From a virus (taxonomy: Duplodnaviria; Heunggongvirae; Uroviricota; Caudoviricetes): a stretch of DNA of 13,352 nt. The notes under the pieces are model-generated. The model ran no database searches, was not told the DNA's origin, and was given only the letters and a program-made list of their open reading frames with translations. Position 1 is the first letter of the stretch. Every line of letters starts with the position of its first letter. The stretch is from IMG/VR virus record IMGVR_UViG_2667527789_000010; one strand, given 5' to 3'. The translations under genes were made by a program, and so were the position numbers. Below, in pieces: positions 1,826 to 12,660 of this stretch.

Positions 1826-2106
1826 GAGATTGTGGTGCTTTTTGTGGGAGTCATCCACTTACGCACTTTGTTTTGCGATGCCAGCAGTTAGCTTCTGCTG
1901 TGAAACTATTCATGCAGCAAACCTGCACTTCACCACAATGGTTAGCATACTTTTCCTGATTAAGATTTTGCCAAATATGCTAGCCATTGTTTCATGTATT
2001 GGACCTCCTTACTTTTTATTAAAGAGATCCAATATTCACTACTCTGTCCGTATCTCTACTCAGGCATCAGCCTTCTTCGTTATCGTATACAGACGAGCGA
2101 TGAATT

Positions 2107-2322
2107 TTAATCAGTAATGATGACATTTGCTGCTGCAGGACCTTTAGCACCACTCTCTATAGAGAAGGTAACCTTTTGACCTTCAAATAAGGTTCGATAA
2201 TTATCATTCTGAATCGCAGAAAAATGCACAAACACATCTTTACTACCATCAACAGGAGAAATAAAGCCGAAACCTTTATCAGCGTTAAACCATTTTACTA
2301 AACCAGTCATTTTATTTGACAT
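2107..2322 (-). CDS. cspB: Cold-shock protein CspB (CspA family, 71 aa)
   Basis: [71 protein letters not shown] has the RNP1 (KGFGFI) and RNP2 (VFVHF) motifs. SD AAGGAA upstream of the ATG at 2320-2322. Confidence 0.9.
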
Positions 2323-2480
2323 TCTACATTCCTTAACTTGAGCCTTTCGGCATAAATGGTTTGCATAACAGAAACGACTTCGTACTTAATTGGAGAGACT
2401 CAAAGAAGGAATAAGTGAATAACACCTGAAATGAGAACTGCTTTAGTAAACTACTTCGTATATCGTCTGTTCTTCAAACC
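2323..2480 (-). promoter_or_regulatory. cspB long 5' UTR with cold-box-like element
   Basis: About 160 nt of non-coding leader upstream of cspB. Minus strand contains TGAAGAACAGACGA (complement of about 2464-2477), resembling the cspA-family cold box UGACGUACAGA. The promoter itself was not pinned down. Confidence 0.4.
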
Positions 2481-2620
2481 GACGCAGTCATTAACTCATA
2501 GTTGAACATATGAAGCAATGTTTATTTTAGACATCCAGCCACCTTCAATCCTATCAAAAAAGTAGTTTTCTCCAGGAACGTGTGTATGGTGCACCAGGTT
2601 ATCAGTATTAAGGAGTTTTT

Positions 2621-5627: not shown

Positions 5628-5783
5628 TTACTCCTCAGGTTCGTAAGCTGTGAAGACAGCGACCTCCGTCTGGCCGGTTCGGATTCGTACCTCGCAGAGG
5701 TCTTTCCTCGTTACCAGTGCCGTCACTATGACGGTTAAACAGATGACGATCAGGGCGATTAACATCGCCTTTTGCTGCTTCAT
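5628..5783 (-). CDS. hokD: Hok-family type I toxin (51 aa), HokD-like
   Basis: MKQQKAMLIALIVICLTVIVTALVTRKDLCEVRIRTGQTEVAVFTAYEPEE: single TM helix plus the conserved Hok C-terminal region. SD AAGGAG lies 9 nt upstream of the ATG at 5781-5783. Confidence 0.85.
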   Translation of the reverse strand: MKQQKAMLIALIVICLTVIVTALVTRKDLCEVRIRTGQTEVAVFTAYEPEE

Positions 5784-5840
5784 AGCCTGCTTCTCCTTGC
5801 CTTTCGGCACGTAAGAGGCTAACCTACATATGTCTAGCAT
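5628..5840 (-). CDS. Mok-like reading frame (in-frame 19-codon N-terminal extension of hok)
   Basis: ATG at 5838-5840 with no SD gives MLDICRLASYVPKGKEKQA fused in frame to Hok. This resembles the chromosomal mok/hok arrangement in which mok shares the hok stop; that arrangement is recalled, not checked. Confidence 0.4.
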   Translation of the reverse strand: MLDICRLASYVPKGKEKQAMKQQKAMLIALIVICLTVIVTALVTRKDLCEVRIRTGQTEVAVFTAYEPEE

Positions 5841-5958
5841 GAAATTGGCCTCAGATTAATGTTAAGCGTCTTGCAGGACGCGTAATGTTAACTGGGGCTT
5901 TTCTCTATCTGCCGTTGGTGTTCATGCCCGAGGCAGATAGCCTCAAGCACCCGCAGCC

Positions 5959-6457: not shown

Positions 6458-8245
6458 ATGGACGATATTAATATCAGCCTCGACGAACTTAACACTATTG
6501 ATTTATCCCCCTTAATCCAGAGTAAGCTGCCAGTTACCTGCTTTGATATCACAAAGTATCTTTCTAGCCTAGGTGATGGAAGAGCGGAGATAAGACTGCT
6601 AACCCATATTTGCGGTTTTCACTTTCGTCCCGAAAATCCACAGGTACCATTTGGTCCGTGCTTTCAAAGCAGCCAAGGTAGATCTGCAATTCCGGATGAC
6701 ATTAACGGGTTGTCGCTGGAGGTACTTTCTCAATTTTGCCCGACGATAGAGCTACCCGAACTTCAAGCTCGTATTGCTGATACACTTTGGGTTCGTAAAA
6801 TTGGTGGAATCCGTTTTCCTTTGCTGGCAGTCCGTGCTTATTATGCGTCCAGTATAGCTATTATGACATCGCAAGGGACGTGGGTTAGTGCTTTAGAACG
6901 CCTAGAGCGTGCGCTTAGGCTGTGTTGTTTTTTTCGAAAGCATACTGATTTCAGGGATGAATTTGATCAGCTTTCGGCACATCTACTAGCAGAGTATGAA
7001 CGTACCAGAGAACAAGGCGATTCACCTTATCCGCTGCGACTCCTGCAACTCGATATCGACTGTAAAGTGAGTGAGCCATCTTTTATTGCCCAGGAACTCC
7101 TGTTTCTGACAAAAAACTATCTGGCTCAAAAATTATTTTCATTTGCCGTCGATGCCTGTAAAACCGCAATCCCGATTGCGAATAGGTGCTGTGACAGAGA
7201 TACACAGTTTGAATTCTGGCGGCTTCTTGCCGATACACATCTGGAAGAGTCAAAATTCCAAGATGGCGGTATGATTTCGGCAGCCTGCATGCAGAATGCT
7301 ATTGAAGCACTGGCTAATATTCCAGGAACCCGAATAGAACGTCTTGCGCTGTATGAAGAAATGCGTGATTACCAAATCGAATCCCGTCACCAGATGTCTA
7401 TCCTTCAGTCTCCCCCTCAAGATATTAGTGAGATTGTCCATCAAGCCAAGAGTCGGGTAGTCGGAAGAGATTTGTTTGATATGGTTTTCAGACTTGCGAT
7501 GCTGGTCTGTCGGCCAACCAGCATTGAGAGACTTAAGGCTCAAGCAATAGAACAAAAGGCCAACAGCATAGCTTGGATGTTTGGATCAACACATATTGAT
7601 CATGAGGGAATGACACTTGCTCGCATACCCGCAGGATTGGGGATTGATGATGCAAATGGGGCAGTTATTTGGCCCATAATGATGACGAGAATGCGTATCG
7701 ACCATGAGTTGGCAGTAGCTGGGCAAATTATTCCTGCTACAGATGAGATCACAATGAAATATCCAATCTCGGAGGCGTTTTTTCGCGATATGTTCATCAA
7801 TCATCCCTTCATCCCGTTTGGGCATGAAGAGTTTTTCATCAAGGGTATGGTTTGCGGTTTCAATGGAGATTTTATGACGGCATGCCACGTGTTGATTCCC
7901 CAGCTCGAAAATAGTCTGAGATATGTGGCTAAAATTAAAGGTGAGGAACCATCGCAGCTTCACGGGGACGGTTCGCAAGAGCGAAATGGACTCAAGGGAT
8001 TACTAGATAATCCACTGATTATTGAAGCTTTCGGCGTAGACATAATTGGCAATCTTCAGGCCTTACTGGTAGATAAAATCTATGGTGATTTACGAAATCA
8101 ACTAGCTCACGGATATGTGCCTGCCGGTTACTACAATCAACCTCCCTGCATTTTTGCATGGTGGCTTGTATTGCACATTCTAATGAACCCTACGGCGAGA
8201 TACTGGCAAGCCACTTATGGCCAAGAGAGTGAGGCTCAGACTTAA
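6458..8245 (+). CDS. Large hypothetical protein (595 aa) with C-terminal HEPN-type R-x4-H motif; candidate defence/abortive-infection nuclease
   Basis: Unambiguous 1788-nt ORF with SD AAGGTG 5 nt upstream of the ATG. It is the only long plus-strand gene in an otherwise minus-strand block. Lower GC by eye (about 40-47%) and E. coli-rare codons (AGA, AGG, ATA, CTA). C-terminus contains GDLRNQLAHG; a second R-x5-H occurs at RDMFINH. No Walker A motif seen. Confidence 0.8.
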   Translation: MDDINISLDELNTIDLSPLIQSKLPVTCFDITKYLSSLGDGRAEIRLLTHICGFHFRPENPQVPFGPCFQSSQGRSAIPDDINGLSLEVLSQFCPTIELPELQARIADTLWVRKIGGIRFPLLAVRAYYASSIAIMTSQGTWVSALERLERALRLCCFFRKHTDFRDEFDQLSAHLLAEYERTREQGDSPYPLRLLQLDIDCKVSEPSFIAQELLFLTKNYLAQKLFSFAVDACKTAIPIANRCCDRDTQFEFWRLLADTHLEESKFQDGGMISAACMQNAIEALANIPGTRIERLALYEEMRDYQIESRHQMSILQSPPQDISEIVHQAKSRVVGRDLFDMVFRLAMLVCRPTSIERLKAQAIEQKANSIAWMFGSTHIDHEGMTLARIPAGLGIDDANGAVIWPIMMTRMRIDHELAVAGQIIPATDEITMKYPISEAFFRDMFINHPFIPFGHEEFFIKGMVCGFNGDFMTACHVLIPQLENSLRYVAKIKGEEPSQLHGDGSQERNGLKGLLDNPLIIEAFGVDIIGNLQALLVDKIYGDLRNQLAHGYVPAGYYNQPPCIFAWWLVLHILMNPTARYWQATYGQESEAQT

Positions 8246-8463
8246 AGTGAATAAGTTTACGAAGTTGGCACTTCCGGATGCATGTCCATATGAGTTGAGG
8301 CGATTTGGTTAATAAGGTTGAGTGCTGCTGAAATTATTCGATGTCCGCTTTTGGCACAAAGCGGACAACCACGCCAGATCTACCCTGTGCCATGAAAAAT
8401 GAGAATGTCAATTCACTCCTGAACTAATGCTTTTTAATCTAGTAACGTCTAAAATACCTAACA

Positions 8464-8865
8464 TTATCCCTGATAAAATGCCAGTATGCGCTGCATAACT
8501 TCACTCATCCGGCACTCGCGACAGATTATGTTTAGGCGACTGTCGTAGCGACGTATTTCTCCATCAGGTAACGACCAGATAACGTCCGGATCAACCACAG
8601 CTGTTTTCTTCACCTTTGCCCTCGAGAGTTTTTTGCGGGCGTTTTGCCAGTCCTTACGCGCCTGTTCAGACGGGAATAACCCGTAGCCGGAGTTGTATAC
8701 ATCGCCACTGGCTACCAGCTCTCTGGCAAGAACGCTCATCAGATATCTAGTCGCACCTGTTTTAGCTTCCAGTTGCCGTAACGTCTCACGACCGCTCTGG
8801 CGCACGAGTTCCACCACCTGCCCTTTAATTTTTTCCCGCTCTTCTTGTGTAAAAACTTTTGCCAC
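8464..8865 (-). CDS. Hypothetical prophage early-region protein (133 aa)
   Basis: GTG start at 8863-8865 preceded by a strong SD AAGGGGGA. Basic protein immediately downstream of the O-like replication gene. No recognisable motif. Confidence 0.5.
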   Translation of the reverse strand: MAKVFTQEEREKIKGQVVELVRQSGRETLRQLEAKTGATRYLMSVLARELVASGDVYNSGYGLFPSEQARKDWQNARKKLSRAKVKKTAVVDPDVIWSLPDGEIRRYDSRLNIICRECRMSEVMQRILAFYQG

Positions 8866-8905
8866 AAGTCCCCCTTAAAATTACCTCATGACCTGAAATC
8901 AAAAC

Positions 8906-9883
8906 TTATCCTCTGAAACCAGGCGGAATTTCTGTATCCGGTTCAGAAATATGATTAACACAACGCTGTACAGGTGAACGCCCCAGGCGGATGACCAGTT
9001 CGTCCCATTTTTCGCGGAGCTTTGACGGGCTCATGATGTTTTTTACCCAGAATGGATCCCGCTGTACCCGACCAAACATTTCACAAATTTGTCTGTGGCT
9101 TCTGCCATCCAGCATCCGCATTGTGCGCACATCATTGGCCCAGACAGTCCAGTTAGGCTCTTTTGGTCGCATGATCTCGCCATCATCACTGGCGGCCTGT
9201 TCGTAGAGACCCACGATCCGCCCCCATATCCACTGCGCACACGCCAGATCCTCCTGGCTACCCCACTGGCGTTTTTTCGCACTAAACACAACTGCGCCAG
9301 GGTGCCGGATTAAAAAATCCTGTTCAGCCGTCTGCGGGTCCGGTTGCGAAGCTTCCGGACGAAAAGTGTTTTTATTCTCTGTAGTAATCTCTGTTGTATT
9401 CTCTGTTGTATTCTCTGTAGGATCATCGGGCCATTTTGACCCGATGACATTGGGTCGTTTTGAACCAATGGAGCGTTTCATTTTGACCTCTTCCATCGTG
9501 TCATTTTGACCTGATGGAGCGGCGCATTTTGAACCGATGGATTCGCTCAATTTGCCATCATCTAAAAGCTCGCTCCCATAGTTAATCGTGTAGAAATTGG
9601 TCATATCGCGCTTTGATTTATTGAGCTTTTCACAACGCAAAAGCCCCAGCGTTTTCAGACTTGCAAACGCGCGCTTTAACGTTGACTCTGACCAGAATGG
9701 GAACTGTTCCAACCATTGTTCCGTTGTGTTGTAAATCCAGCGAACACCATCACATTCCATGCCGGAATTGGTATCTCTCAACCAGTAATGCAACTGCTGC
9801 AACACAATGGCTTCATTTAAGCCAATCTTCATCGCAAGCTGTGTGTTTATAACCAGTGGGCGTTCAGCAAAAAGAAGGCTCAT
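8906..9883 (-). CDS. Replication initiator, lambda O-like (replisome-organizer type) with internal origin iterons
   Basis: ATG at 9881-9883; the track's TTG at 9937 gives a longer version. N-terminal region (ERPLVINTQLAMKIGLNEAIVLQQLHYWLR...) resembles the DNA-binding domain of phage replication initiators. Central TENTTENTTEITTEN low-complexity linker is encoded by 12-bp tandem repeats, adjacent to 5 iterons. Sits downstream of the cro-like gene as O does in lambda. Confidence 0.65.
   Translation of the reverse strand: MSLLFAERPLVINTQLAMKIGLNEAIVLQQLHYWLRDTNSGMECDGVRWIYNTTEQWLEQFPFWSESTLKRAFASLKTLGLLRCEKLNKSKRDMTNFYTINYGSELLDDGKLSESIGSKCAAPSGQNDTMEEVKMKRSIGSKRPNVIGSKWPDDPTENTTENTTEITTENKNTFRPEASQPDPQTAEQDFLIRHPGAVVFSAKKRQWGSQEDLACAQWIWGRIVGLYEQAASDDGEIMRPKEPNWTVWANDVRTMRMLDGRSHRQICEMFGRVQRDPFWVKNIMSPSKLREKWDELVIRLGRSPVQRCVNHISEPDTEIPPGFRG
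9375..9422. repeat. Four tandem 12-bp repeats (TTCTCTGT[A/T]G[T/G]A) inside the O-like gene
   Basis: ttctctgtagta / atctctgttgta / ttctctgttgta / ttctctgtagga, read directly from the sequence. They encode the TTEN-repeat linker. Confidence 0.8.
9432..9540. repeat. Putative origin of replication: five iterons with about 23-bp periodicity (consensus CATTTTGACC-n-GATGG)
   Basis: Copies start at about 9432, 9456, 9479, 9502 and 9525 (cattttgacccgatg, gttttgaaccaatgg, cattttgacctcttcc, cattttgacctgatgg, cattttgaaccgatgg), inside the O-like gene as in lambda ori, and flanked by AT-richer sequence. Confidence 0.6.
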
Positions 9884-10385
9884 AATTCCATCCAGCTTTT
9901 TGTTGGTATTGCTGTCGATACGCAAGTTTGAAAGCAATTGCTTTTTCTATAAGTTCGTCAGTTTCACGATCCACTACGGCAGGATCAGCAAAAAGCAGTC
10001 CGGACTCCACCACATCGCCATATTCTTTGTTTAACCCGGCGATCATGTACGTGATGCTTTTTCCGTCACTAATTTCACGATACAACCTGAAATCATTAAT
10101 CCGGATAGCCTCCATAATTGCAGGCACTAGCGCCGTGAACTTTTCACGCTTATCCCTGGTGTCGATAGCCTTCCAGCGTTCGAATATCTTCACTCGATTA
10201 ACGCCAAGCGCTCGCTGATCAACCGCGCCACCTTCATCTGTGACACGCTGAACATCGATGTTCGGGCGCTCTTTCAAAGCCCAGAATGCTTCAGTGATTA
10301 ATATCGTCGCCTGCTCCTGTGTCATTCCTGGTCGACATATCCAGGCATCCAGAGCCTCACGAGCCTGTTCAGGAGTGATTTTCAT
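9864..10385 (-). CDS. Hypothetical early protein (173 aa) in the cII/YdaT position between cro-like and O-like genes
   Basis: ATG at 10383-10385 overlaps the dicC-like stop by 17 nt, and its own stop overlaps the O-like start by about 20 nt, indicating tight translational coupling. Function not recognised. Confidence 0.5.
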   Translation of the reverse strand: MKITPEQAREALDAWICRPGMTQEQATILITEAFWALKERPNIDVQRVTDEGGAVDQRALGVNRVKIFERWKAIDTRDKREKFTALVPAIMEAIRINDFRLYREISDGKSITYMIAGLNKEYGDVVESGLLFADPAVVDRETDELIEKAIAFKLAYRQQYQQKAGWNYEPSFC

Positions 10386-10596
10386 TGTTCAACCGCCCCG
10401 CCCGCTTCGTCTTACGATATTCGTCATAAACCTTGGGATCATACAGAAGCTCCCCGCCAGATGCCTCCTGTAGACGCATCGCGCGACCTTCAGGAACCAG
10501 TATCCCCCAAGCAGCAACACTTGCCAGTCTCACTCCTGCGGCATTGGCAAGCTTTGTTTTGCTGCCAAAAAAAGTAATTGCGTCAACTTTAAGCAT
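10369..10596 (-). CDS. dicC: Cro-analogue repressor DicC-like
   Basis: MLKVDAITFFGSKTKLANAAGVRLASVAAWGILVPEGRAMRLQEASGGELLYDPKVYDEYRKTKRAGRLNNENHS. ATG at 10594-10596 with SD GAGGGGG; the TTG at 10599 is an alternative start. Divergent from dicA across an operator-bearing intergenic region. Confidence 0.75.
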   Translation of the reverse strand: MLKVDAITFFGSKTKLANAAGVRLASVAAWGILVPEGRAMRLQEASGGELLYDPKVYDEYRKTKRAGRLNNENHS

Positions 10597-10609
10597 CAAA
10601 GCCCCCTCT

Positions 10610-10627
10610 TGTTAGACTTTTCTAACA
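10610..10627. promoter_or_regulatory. 18-bp palindromic operator in the dicC-dicA intergenic region (TGTTAGA-CTTT-TCTAACA)
   Basis: Perfect 7-bp inverted arms with a 4-bp spacer between the divergent repressor genes. Nearly identical to the second site at 11121-11138. Confidence 0.6.
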
Positions 10628-10676
10628 TTATTGTGCGCGGGATATCTAAGTCAAGAAAAATTAGAATTACCTAACT

Positions 10677-11084
10677 ATGGATACAAGAACCCTAGGCCAG
10701 CGAGTTCTGGCGCGACGAAAAGAATTACGCTTAACACAACGAGAAGCTGCGCGCCTCGCTGGAGTTGCTCACGTCACAATTTCACAATGGGAAAGAGACG
10801 AAACCCAGCCAGTCGGAAAACGATTGTTTGCTTTAGCGGATGCTCTGAAGTGCTCACCTACATGGCTAATGTTTGGTGACGAAGACAAGGCACCAGTGCC
10901 TGCACAAGAACTTCATGTGGAAACAGAGCTAACTCCCAACCACAAAGAATTGATCGAATTATTCGATGCTCTTCCATCTTCCGAGCAGGAAGCCTTGCTG
11001 TCTGAAATGCGCGCAAGAGTAGAAAACTTCAACAAACTCTTCGAAGAAATGCTTAAAGCGCGTAAAAATAAATCAATAAAATAA
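10677..11084 (+). CDS. dicA: CI-analogue HTH (XRE-family) repressor DicA-like, 135 aa
   Basis: HTH region LRLTQREAARLAGVAHVTISQWERDETQP. The downstream LFALADALKCSPTWLMFGDEDK and C-terminal EMRARVENFNKLFEEMLKARKN closely resemble K-12 DicA as recalled. Very short leader (candidate -10 TAGAAT at 10662-10667). Confidence 0.85.
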   Translation: MDTRTLGQRVLARRKELRLTQREAARLAGVAHVTISQWERDETQPVGKRLFALADALKCSPTWLMFGDEDKAPVPAQELHVETELTPNHKELIELFDALPSSEQEALLSEMRARVENFNKLFEEMLKARKNKSIK

Positions 11085-11120
11085 CATTCTTTTCAAGTGA
11101 TTAGTTGCGCCCACTCTTTT

Positions 11121-11138
11121 TGTTAGACTAATCTAACA
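11121..11138. promoter_or_regulatory. Second 18-bp palindromic operator (TGTTAGA-CTAA-TCTAACA) upstream of the dicB-operon promoter
   Basis: Same 7-bp arms as the site at 10610-10627. Located just upstream of a candidate promoter (-35 TTGCCT 11147-11152, -10 TAAATT 11170-11175) whose spacer contains a degenerate third half-palindrome TGTTAG...TCTAA. Confidence 0.6.
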
Positions 11139-11146
11139 AAAAACAC

Positions 11147-11175
11147 TTGCCTCTCATGTTAGGTTATTCTAAATT
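11147..11175 (+). promoter_or_regulatory. Candidate promoter of the ydfA-dicF-dicB operon (dicBp-like)
   Basis: TTGCCT, 17-nt spacer, TAAATT, flanked and overlapped by DicA-type operator palindromes. Confidence 0.4.
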
Positions 11176-11252
11176 ACTTTCCATCAAGACACCGCACGGT
11201 GTTCTCAGCAAACAGTTCCGCTACCCCGGCGTTAAGGGGAAATGAGGTCAGC

Positions 11253-12244: not shown

Positions 12245-12300
12245 TTTCTGGTGACGTTTGGCGGTATCAGTTTTACTCCGTGACTGCTCTGCCGCCGTTT
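12245..12300 (+). ncRNA. dicF: DicF small RNA (division-inhibiting sRNA targeting ftsZ) with intrinsic terminator
   Basis: tttctggtgacgtttggcggtatcagttttactccgtgactgctctgccgcc followed by gtttt matches my recollection of the 53-nt DicF sequence. The 3' GGCGG...CCGCC stem plus U-tract forms a terminator. Located between the ydfB/C region and dicB as in the K-12 operon. Confidence 0.75.
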
Positions 12301-12471: not shown

Positions 12472-12660
12472 ATGAAAACGTTATTACCAAACGTTAATAC
12501 GTCTGAAGGTTGTTTTGAAATTGGTGTCACTATCAGTAACCCTGTATTTACTGAAGATGCCATTAACAAGAGAAAACAAGAACGGGAGCTATTAAATAAA
12601 ATATGCATTGTTTCAATGCTGGCTCGTTTACGTCTGATGCCAAAAGGATGTGCACAATGA
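12472..12660 (+). CDS. dicB: Cell-division inhibitor DicB (62 aa)
   Basis: ATG at 12472 with SD GAGGA. Product MKTLLPNVNTSEGCFEIGVTISNPVFTEDAINKRKQERELLNKICIVSMLARLRLMPKGCAQ matches DicB as recalled. Confidence 0.85.
   Translation: MKTLLPNVNTSEGCFEIGVTISNPVFTEDAINKRKQERELLNKICIVSMLARLRLMPKGCAQ

Follow-up and report, generated by a model that had tools for sequence, protein, structure and literature searches.

Why does a lambdoid prophage carry, in the middle of a single gene, two adjoining sets of direct repeats of different period? The question is raised by a stretch of 13,352 nt from the IMG/VR virus record IMGVR_UViG_2667527789_000010 (Caudoviricetes; hereafter the window), in which an O-like replication initiator gene on the minus strand contains a run of 23-bp iterons followed by an array of four 12-bp units. 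Our answer is that positions 9371-9562 are very probably the vegetative replication origin of a Qin/mEp460-type lambdoid prophage, placed inside the linker-coding part of its own initiator gene. Observed directly were the repeats with their periodicity, conservation and independence of reading frame, a duplex of low stability, homologies of the protein domains, and the same module in phage genome records; from these we infer binding, unwinding and helicase recruitment, whereas in this defective prophage the origin may or may not still fire.

Five iterons at intervals of about 23 bp had been noticed in an earlier reading of the sequence (hereafter the original prediction), and they stand as described, on the minus strand at 9424-9539 with spacings of 23, 23, 23 and 24; to these we add a sixth, degenerate copy, iteron 0. 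Self-identity of the 117-nt iteron block at lag 23 is 0.56. Taking the best lag between 10 and 40 in each of 2000 shuffles gave a mean of 0.35 (standard deviation 0.024) and a maximum of 0.45, and the self-comparison proposed with the original prediction thus places the signal above every shuffle. The ten most periodic 117-nt segments of the window all fall in this block, where Tandem Repeats Finder calls a 23-bp array at 9458-9541. Internal dyad symmetry is present in every iteron, and iteron 5 comes close to a perfect 25-bp palindrome (I2, an inverted repeat whose arms at 9423-9433 and 9437-9447 are 91% complementary). Iterons 1-5 lie in codon phases 2, 1, 0, 2 and 2, and the peptides encoded in different phases are unrelated (SIGSKC, PSGQND, EEVKMK), which argues that the repeat is maintained at the DNA level.

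Iteron number was also compared across relatives, as had been suggested. All six positions are in register in 11 enterobacterial genes, whose N-terminal domains are 72-100% identical to that of the window where measured. Among the resulting 66 iterons A2, A10 and G15 are invariant (66/66), C9, A11, A12 and T22 are each found in 64-65, and the consensus is cAtcaGGTCAAAaTGanccgaTc. Iteron 0 of the window retains C9, A10-12, G15 and T22, and its position is held by an intact GGTCAAAGTG site in mEp460_4F5, Kp4882, L016 and L018 (L numbers denote compared loci).

For the 12-bp array, the original prediction gave four contiguous units at 9375-9422 and took them for a TTEN-repeat linker beside the origin. 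The units are real (Tandem Repeats Finder: 9373-9420, 4.0 copies, 88% matches), in a register shifted by 4 nt to 9371-9418; their role as a mere linker had to be given up, as the array occupies the position of the A+T-rich unwinding region of lambda, is the least stable part of the gene and is constrained in its nucleotides. Read on the minus strand, the units are ACAGAGAATACA twice (9418-9407 and 9406-9395), ACAGAGATTACT (9394-9383) and ACAGAGAATAAA (9382-9371), encoding TENT-TENT-TEIT-TENK within a predicted disordered linker. The motif CAGAGAWTAM occurs four times in the window, always in the array, against an expectation of 0.12, and four occurrences were reached in 0 of 200 shuffles. G+C content of the array is 0.30-0.33, and the nearest-neighbour stability minimum of the gene starts at 9363-9369 (windows of 30, 48 and 60 steps), which makes the array the least stable duplex of the gene and places it within the top 1.4-1.9% of the window. 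An identical calculation, run as a control, recovers the known A+T-rich region of lambda, and it also picks out the array in other gammaproteobacterial members. No IHF consensus was seen in the array by eye, no formal scan having been made.

The repeats lie, as originally proposed, inside the O-like gene, between an N-terminal DNA-binding domain and a C-terminal domain homologous to that of lambda O. The 325-aa (amino acid) protein is 'hypothetical' in RefSeq (WP_000054490.1, from the 100% identical locus of Escherichia coli strain 190) and has no Pfam family at E 0.01 or better; scans of Pfam, NCBIfam and PADLOC returned no family for it, and PHROGs alone names an initiator (PHROG 391, 'replication initiation O-like', E 2.6e-92). 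AlphaFold2 models the N-terminal domain as a winged helix with a predicted local distance difference test score (pLDDT) above 90, and residues 112-181, encoded by the iterons and the array, as disordered, with pLDDT below 55 and no secondary structure. The C-terminal part of the model is unreliable because the alignment spanned the N-terminal domain only, and it was set aside. By BLASTP, residues 166-298 match residues 150-270 of lambda O (36% identity over 133 residues, E 3e-26), the homology starting within the 12-mer array, where lambda has its A+T-rich region; similarity to lambda O is absent from the N-terminal domain. According to the model, the fold of the latter is closest to RepA_N/DnaD-N initiators, with 11-19% identity to RepA_N structures in structural alignment, while by sequence Pfam RepA_N (PF06970) gives no hit at E 0.01 or better. 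A sequence search of the PDB with the initiator returned only the DnaT-like tail described below and a match to YteR, judged spurious.

Retention of the initiator module, another element of the original prediction, is borne out by three phage genome records, HannyBb, mEp460_ev081 and PhiR42_1, which contain it at 96.0-96.8% DNA identity. The N-terminal domain of the window is 100% identical to that of HannyBb and 99.1% to that of PhiR42_1, and only 3 bases separate the iterons of the window from those of HannyBb. In a preprint, mEp460_ev081 is presented as a temperate phage of Qin-like type that is functional.

Variation in the number of 12-bp units, which had been anticipated, is found among the relatives, from two to five and always in frame. 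Three units are the norm: 76 of 80 IMG/VR loci with N-terminal domains 99-100% identical to that of the window have three, as do HannyBb, RM9387 and mEp460_4F5. Four are found in the window and L009, five in L088 and Edwardsiella L020, and two plus a degenerate third in Enterobacter L016. The four-unit allele is probably a minority in E. coli, judging from the 4092 complete E. coli records that match the 1.2-kb segment of the window, since just 39 are at least 99% identical (1747 cover at least 80% of the segment). In two further IMG/VR loci (L099, L103) the initiator gene is cut within the array after unit 1, at what by eye resembles the end of an IS3-family insertion sequence (ACTGTGAACCGCCCCGGGAATCC..., with the start of a transposase behind it). 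Three loci with N-terminal domains 100% identical to that of the window (L009, L010, L025) are filed under metagenome-assembled genomes (MAGs) of Veillonella parvula, Bacillota bacterium and Collinsella sp., assignments that are probably binning contamination; L009 additionally has the four-unit array and the full protein sequence of the window.

The N-terminal domain, iterons and array occur together with varied C-terminal domains: lambda-O-like in E. coli, mEp460_4F5, Trabulsiella, Edwardsiella and Scandinavium; Phg_2220_C by Pfam in a Klebsiella phage and apparently, by similar sequence, in Citrobacter, Raoultella and Enterobacter; and DnaB_2 in Staphylococcus phage 96. The reverse case is E. 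coli AZ 190, where an HTH_36 N-terminal domain precedes the same C-terminal domain, with other repeats (DPS..DPS) and without the 12-mer array; DNA similarity between it and the window ends exactly at the array. Such swapping is the behaviour expected of an initiator-binding domain and its cognate origin. In all, the N-terminal domain gave roughly 600 IMG/VR hits and was found in 139 phage records, with hosts including Vibrio, Staphylococcus, Bacillus, Klebsiella, Pseudomonas and Flavobacterium; none of 120 listed homologues has a precomputed Pfam domain, and annotations range from 'DnaD-like helicase loader' to 'conjugative transposon protein'. In L047, L048 and L050 (MAGs labelled Deferribacterales and Proteobacteria) it heads proteins of about 785 aa, which may be fusions with a second replication enzyme; CAGAGAnTAC units are absent from these.

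At greater distance the arrangement persists. Relatives with N-terminal domains at 45-60% identity have iterons built on a CAAAATG or CAATTTG core and spaced by 22-24 bp, with CAGAGAnTAC units behind them; they include Bacillus, Anoxybacillus, Staphylococcus phage 96, Bacillus phage BMBtp2, Taibaiella, Erwinia phage PEp14, Pseudomonas phage AF and MAGs labelled Hydrogenimonas and Bacillota, so that the motif is found in Gammaproteobacteria, Firmicutes, Bacteroidota and others. Taken together, 43 loci have 81 units in the zone behind the N-terminal domain and 9 matches in 450 kb of flanks; successive units are spaced by 12 in 43 of 48 cases and otherwise by 10, 11 or 14. Of the 81 units, 76 share one frame and encode T/P-E-x-T; at four loci there are units in a second frame, for example GAC AGA GAC TAC / ACA GAG ACT ACA, read as DRDY and then TETT. 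Of 68 units defined by peptide only, as [TPS]E[INTS]T, 66 use GAG for Glu, against 34% for these genes as a whole, and 67 begin with an NCA codon, whether the residue is T, P or S. Between lineages, the two synonymous positions within each unit are the same in 32 of 34 comparisons, against 39% agreement at third positions of identical residues in the N-terminal domain (n=3498). Recent horizontal transfer was rejected as the cause of this cross-phylum identity because the adjoining synonymous sites of the N-terminal domain are saturated. These comparisons argue strongly that the nucleotide sequence of the array is constrained independently of its peptide, and the codon and cross-phylum data weaken a pure peptide linker and a pure A+T element alike.

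We tentatively suggest, at rather less than even chances, that the CAGAGAnTAC 12-mers form an origin element, sequence-specific and not described before, of a large Pfam-less initiator family whose phages belong to Gammaproteobacteria, Firmicutes, Bacteroidota and further groups. The element would be read by the winged-helix domain, for example by capture of one unwound strand in the manner of TrfA, and host-specific C-terminal domains and tails would plug this core into the loading machinery of their hosts without a phage loader. A rival account, in which the array is only a passive A+T-rich unwinding element and slippage-prone microsatellite whose exact sequence is irrelevant, seems unlikely to us, if by no means far-fetched: it would explain why, in E. 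coli and other gammaproteobacterial members, no duplex in the gene is less stable than the array, why the array is placed as the A+T-rich region of lambda is and why copy number drifts between two and five, but not why CAGAGAnTAC is kept across phyla and so concentrated behind the N-terminal domain. The A+T-rich region of lambda, moreover, differs in sequence, and in BMBtp2, Staphylococcus phage 96 and L024 the array is conserved while being no less stable than 53-64% of the windows of the same gene; with stability so ordinary in low-GC relatives, passive unwinding or A+T richness cannot be the full explanation of its conservation.

Taken as an origin, the region suggests the following course of events. 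Dimers of the N-terminal winged helix would bind the five to six dyad-symmetric iterons, whose arms converge on an A-tract; the nucleoprotein complex, aided by transcription from a pR-like promoter, would then open the adjoining 48-bp array of 12-mers, and the lambda-O-like C-terminal domain with a DnaT-like tail would bring in the helicase-loading machinery of the host. Host machinery is proposed because a phage P/DnaC gene is absent.

The tail, which copies the final 20 residues of host DnaT, matches PDB chains 2ru8, 6aep and 9zbt_D (DnaT 160-179) with E 3e-4 to 7e-4 (phmmer, 39-aa query). In the NCBIfam DnaT model NF002770 it scores 16.3 bits against a cut-off of 201, and since the match is confined to model positions 160-179, identity as a full-length DnaT ('Primosomal protein I') was ruled out; the match does account for that label in mEp460 records. 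Tails of the GFRG type (IPAGFRG, VPAGFRS, IPPGFRG, PNGFRG.., PKGFRG..) end enterobacterial members with either type of C-terminal domain; Firmicute members end differently, and lambda O has no DnaT-like tail. In L017 (Izhakiella) and L019 (Trabulsiella) the place of GFRG is taken by another shared tail, ..GGHWNSPEAWENTL, which may be another short host-binding motif. We found no statement of a binding partner of DnaT residues 160-179 in the literature, including the sections consulted of a 2026 preprimosome paper. In the E. coli RM9387 variant an IstB/DnaC-like ATPase gene lies directly downstream of the initiator, and the DnaT-like tail is kept; the loader-less 'initiator-solo' layout and that of RM9387 can be compared at window 8464-10385, L002 and L006:1247-1987.

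Several points weigh against an origin here. A full-text literature search found no published description of it; the AlphaFold2 model is confident for residues 11-105 only; and the N-terminal domain has no match to Phage_rep_O (PF04492), where lambda O scores 5.7e-36. Given that this domain is unlike that of lambda O by sequence, 'lambda-like' rests on architecture and the C-terminal domain. Among the low-GC relatives from Firmicutes, the stability of the array is no lower than that of the remaining gene. The window encodes no homologue of P, DnaC or DnaB, and hence no helicase loader near the initiator. Finally, the prophage looks defective, with frameshifted exonuclease and xis genes and a Qin-like gene order, and the origin may for that reason never fire in it.

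The last two points would suit a reading in which the iterons no longer work as an origin here, being a relic, a sink that titrates the initiator of superinfecting phages (exclusion or incompatibility) or an autoregulatory site of the operon. Besides the frameshifted genes and the missing loader, it could appeal to a Qin-like layout largely without structural genes and to plasmid-borne ori-lambda segments, which the abstract of PMC3349717 reports to inhibit rep-lambda phages. We nevertheless hold it improbable. The initiator gene is intact, its N-terminal domain and iterons are as close to those of HannyBb as noted above, and HannyBb itself has no P-, DnaC- or DnaB-like gene in the annotated 9-kb stretch around its initiator gene; the arrangement is therefore not peculiar to this defective prophage, and absence of a loader does not imply inactivity. 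Such a reading would in any case be compatible with the element being an origin by descent. That the repeats act at the protein level only, as peptide repeats of a flexible linker between two domains and without DNA function, is very improbable: the disorder predicted for residues 112-181, the in-frame position of the 12-bp units and the common T/P-E-x-T frame of 76 of 81 units in relatives would fit it, but not iterons in all three codon phases with unrelated peptides, nor the fixed GAG codons, nor first codons NCA whose bases CA are kept though T, P and S change, nor array third positions that agree in 32 of 34 cases against 0.39 in a saturated N-terminal domain, nor second-frame units at four loci with spacings of 10-11 or 14 bp.

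Coordinates of the origin, the initiator gene and other features of the window (positions are those of the whole stretch; aa, amino acids)
Feature	Position	Strand	Sequence	Remarks
O-like replication initiator gene	8906..9883	-		325 aa; ATG at 9883, stop 8906-8908; from open reading frame list and translation
N-terminal winged-helix domain, coding region	9569..9883	-		aa 1-105; presumed iteron-binding domain
Iteron 0, degenerate	9540..9562	-	GATGATGGCAAATTGAGCGAATC	in 23-bp register with iterons 1-5
Iteron 1	9517..9539	-	CATCGGTTCAAAATGCGCCGCTC	codon phase 2
Iteron 2	9494..9516	-	CATCAGGTCAAAATGACACGATG	codon phase 1
Iteron 3	9471..9493	-	GAAGAGGTCAAAATGAAACGCTC	codon phase 0
Iteron 4	9448..9470	-	CATTGGTTCAAAACGACCCAATG	codon phase 2
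Iteron 5	9424..9446	-	CATCGGGTCAAAATGGCCCGATG	codon phase 2; adjoins 12-mer array
Four 12-bp units	9371..9418	-	ACAGAGAWTAMA	proposed DNA-unwinding element, possibly sequence-specific origin element
Lambda-O-like C-terminal domain, coding region	8990..9388	-		aa 166-298; BLASTP
C-terminal tail	8909..8968	-	QRCVNHISEPDTEIPPGFRG (..VNHISEPDTEIPPGFRG)	copy of last 20 residues of host DnaT
DUF977/Ren-like gene	8464-8865	-		directly downstream of O-like gene
YdaT/cII-like gene	9864-10385	-
pR-like promoter	10627..10654	-	TTGACT-16-AATAAT	sole match in 8300-11200 (promoter scan)
cI/DicA-like repressor gene	10677-11084			opposite orientation to O-like operon
cspA thermoregulator	2091-2483	-		Rfam, above gathering score; upstream of cspB
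sok antitoxin RNA	5778-5952	-		Rfam, above gathering score; beside hokD
DicF	12246-12297	+		Rfam, above gathering score

The surroundings are those of a Qin-like prophage. Over positions 8800-10000 the window shows 100% identity to the E. coli strain 190 chromosome (NZ_CP020520.1), where the locus lies within such a prophage beside ynfA and rspAB. The pR-like promoter heads an operon that runs through the origin, with cro-like, YdaT(cII)-like, O-like and DUF977/Ren-like genes. In K-12 the same place holds dicA, dicC, ydfX, ydfW, flxA, ydfV, relBE and hokD, and the O-like gene is absent from it; the expectation that K-12 Qin lacks both origin and initiator thus held, and a preprint likewise describes K-12 Qin as without most replication genes. 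No DnaA box was found near the origin, the lone match with one mismatch being at 7924, which leaves a DnaA-dependent origin unsupported, and Rfam has no RNA family in the origin region. Elsewhere in the window, the place that relBE, ydfV and flxA have in K-12 Qin, between hokD and the DUF977 gene, is taken by a 595-aa DUF7380/DUF4209 protein (6458-8245, plus strand) with a match (E 3e-102) to PDC-S39, a candidate defence family of PADLOC. A 13-bp tandem repeat (AAACGTTAATACC, 1.9 copies) is found at 12476-12500, downstream of DicF.

An origin and initiator can thus be proposed for Qin/mEp460 prophages of E. coli, whose protein is 'hypothetical' in RefSeq and mislabelled 'Primosomal protein I' in some phage records. 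Of 5426 complete E. coli genomes, 1746, about a third, contain a match to at least 80% of the O-like segment. Some Qin-like prophages keep an apparently intact replicon that K-12 has lost, which bears on amplification in situ upon derepression and on interference between such prophages and related phages. For their part, the DnaT-like tail and the motif of the 12-mers offer readily testable handles on how winged-helix initiators open DNA and how loader-less phage replicons recruit DnaB.

Among known systems, the closest parallel in layout is ori-lambda, which the original prediction had invoked: its anatomy, like that of the Shiga toxin (Stx) phage origins, matches the one described here, whereas the N-terminal domain is not that of lambda O. 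In lambda, the origin lies within O and consists of four 19-bp inverted-repeat iterons followed by a 40-bp A+T-rich region, which is opened by O binding and needs pR transcription. Both origins sit in the middle of the initiator gene (the iterons here between aa 105 and aa 155, between the two protein domains) and share the order of N-terminal domain, iterons, unstable stretch on the C-terminal side and lambda-O-like C-terminal domain, at 36% identity; the iterons of both are dyad-symmetric, spaced by some 20-24 bp and have a central TCAAAAYG in common. The operon, too, has the lambda order of cro, cII-like, O and Ren-like genes after a pR-like promoter, facing a cI/DicA-like repressor gene. 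The differences are an N-terminal domain outside Pfam Phage_rep_O, six iteron positions instead of four, an unstable region of exact 12-mers in place of a homopurine A+T tract, a DUF977/Ren-like gene downstream where lambda has P, and the DnaT-like tail. Lambda itself (L003) has at 1160-1175, just beyond its A+T-rich region, a single CAGAGAATTC, identical to a unit in 9 of 10 bases, and its ..GAATTCTGGCGAATCC.. stretch also follows the array in Edwardsiella L020, with a close variant, ..GAATTCTGACGAATCC.., in Scandinavium L022; this lone site may be what is left of a unit, or it may be there by chance. The Stx phages 933W and P27 carry six iterons and an A+T-rich tract in gene O, the extra iterons adding 13 residues to the protein. 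They resemble the window in having six iteron positions of which the distal ones are weaker, as is iteron 0 here, and depart from it in their lambda-type O N-terminal domains and their P gene; a 12-mer array is not reported for them.

The N-terminal domain points instead to the RepA_N initiators, of which 4PTA and 4PT7 are staphylococcal representatives whose family has semi-palindromic iterons converging on a poly-A tract and host-specific C-terminal domains (PMC7145576). The iteron anatomy CATCGGG-TCAAAATG-GCCCGATG and the logo of 66 iterons fit that description (PMC7145576). As in the initiators of pSK41 and pTZ2162 and the RepA of the Vibrio satellite PLE, a conserved N-terminal domain is combined with a C-terminal one specific to the host; here, unlike there, the latter comes from lambda O and the former has no Pfam RepA_N match. 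Many RepA_N plasmids also have their origin inside the rep gene. For the array, the nearest counterparts are the repeated 13-mers in the unwinding elements of RK2 oriV and F, one strand of which is bound by the winged-helix initiators TrfA and RepE, the sequence of every RK2 repeat being required (PMC4081077). The units described here differ from those 13-mers, as from those of oriC, in their period of 12, their unrelated sequence and their place within a coding region, but as in RK2 and F they are short tandem repeats in an unstable region that adjoins the iterons of a winged-helix initiator, and their sequence is conserved beyond its A+T content.

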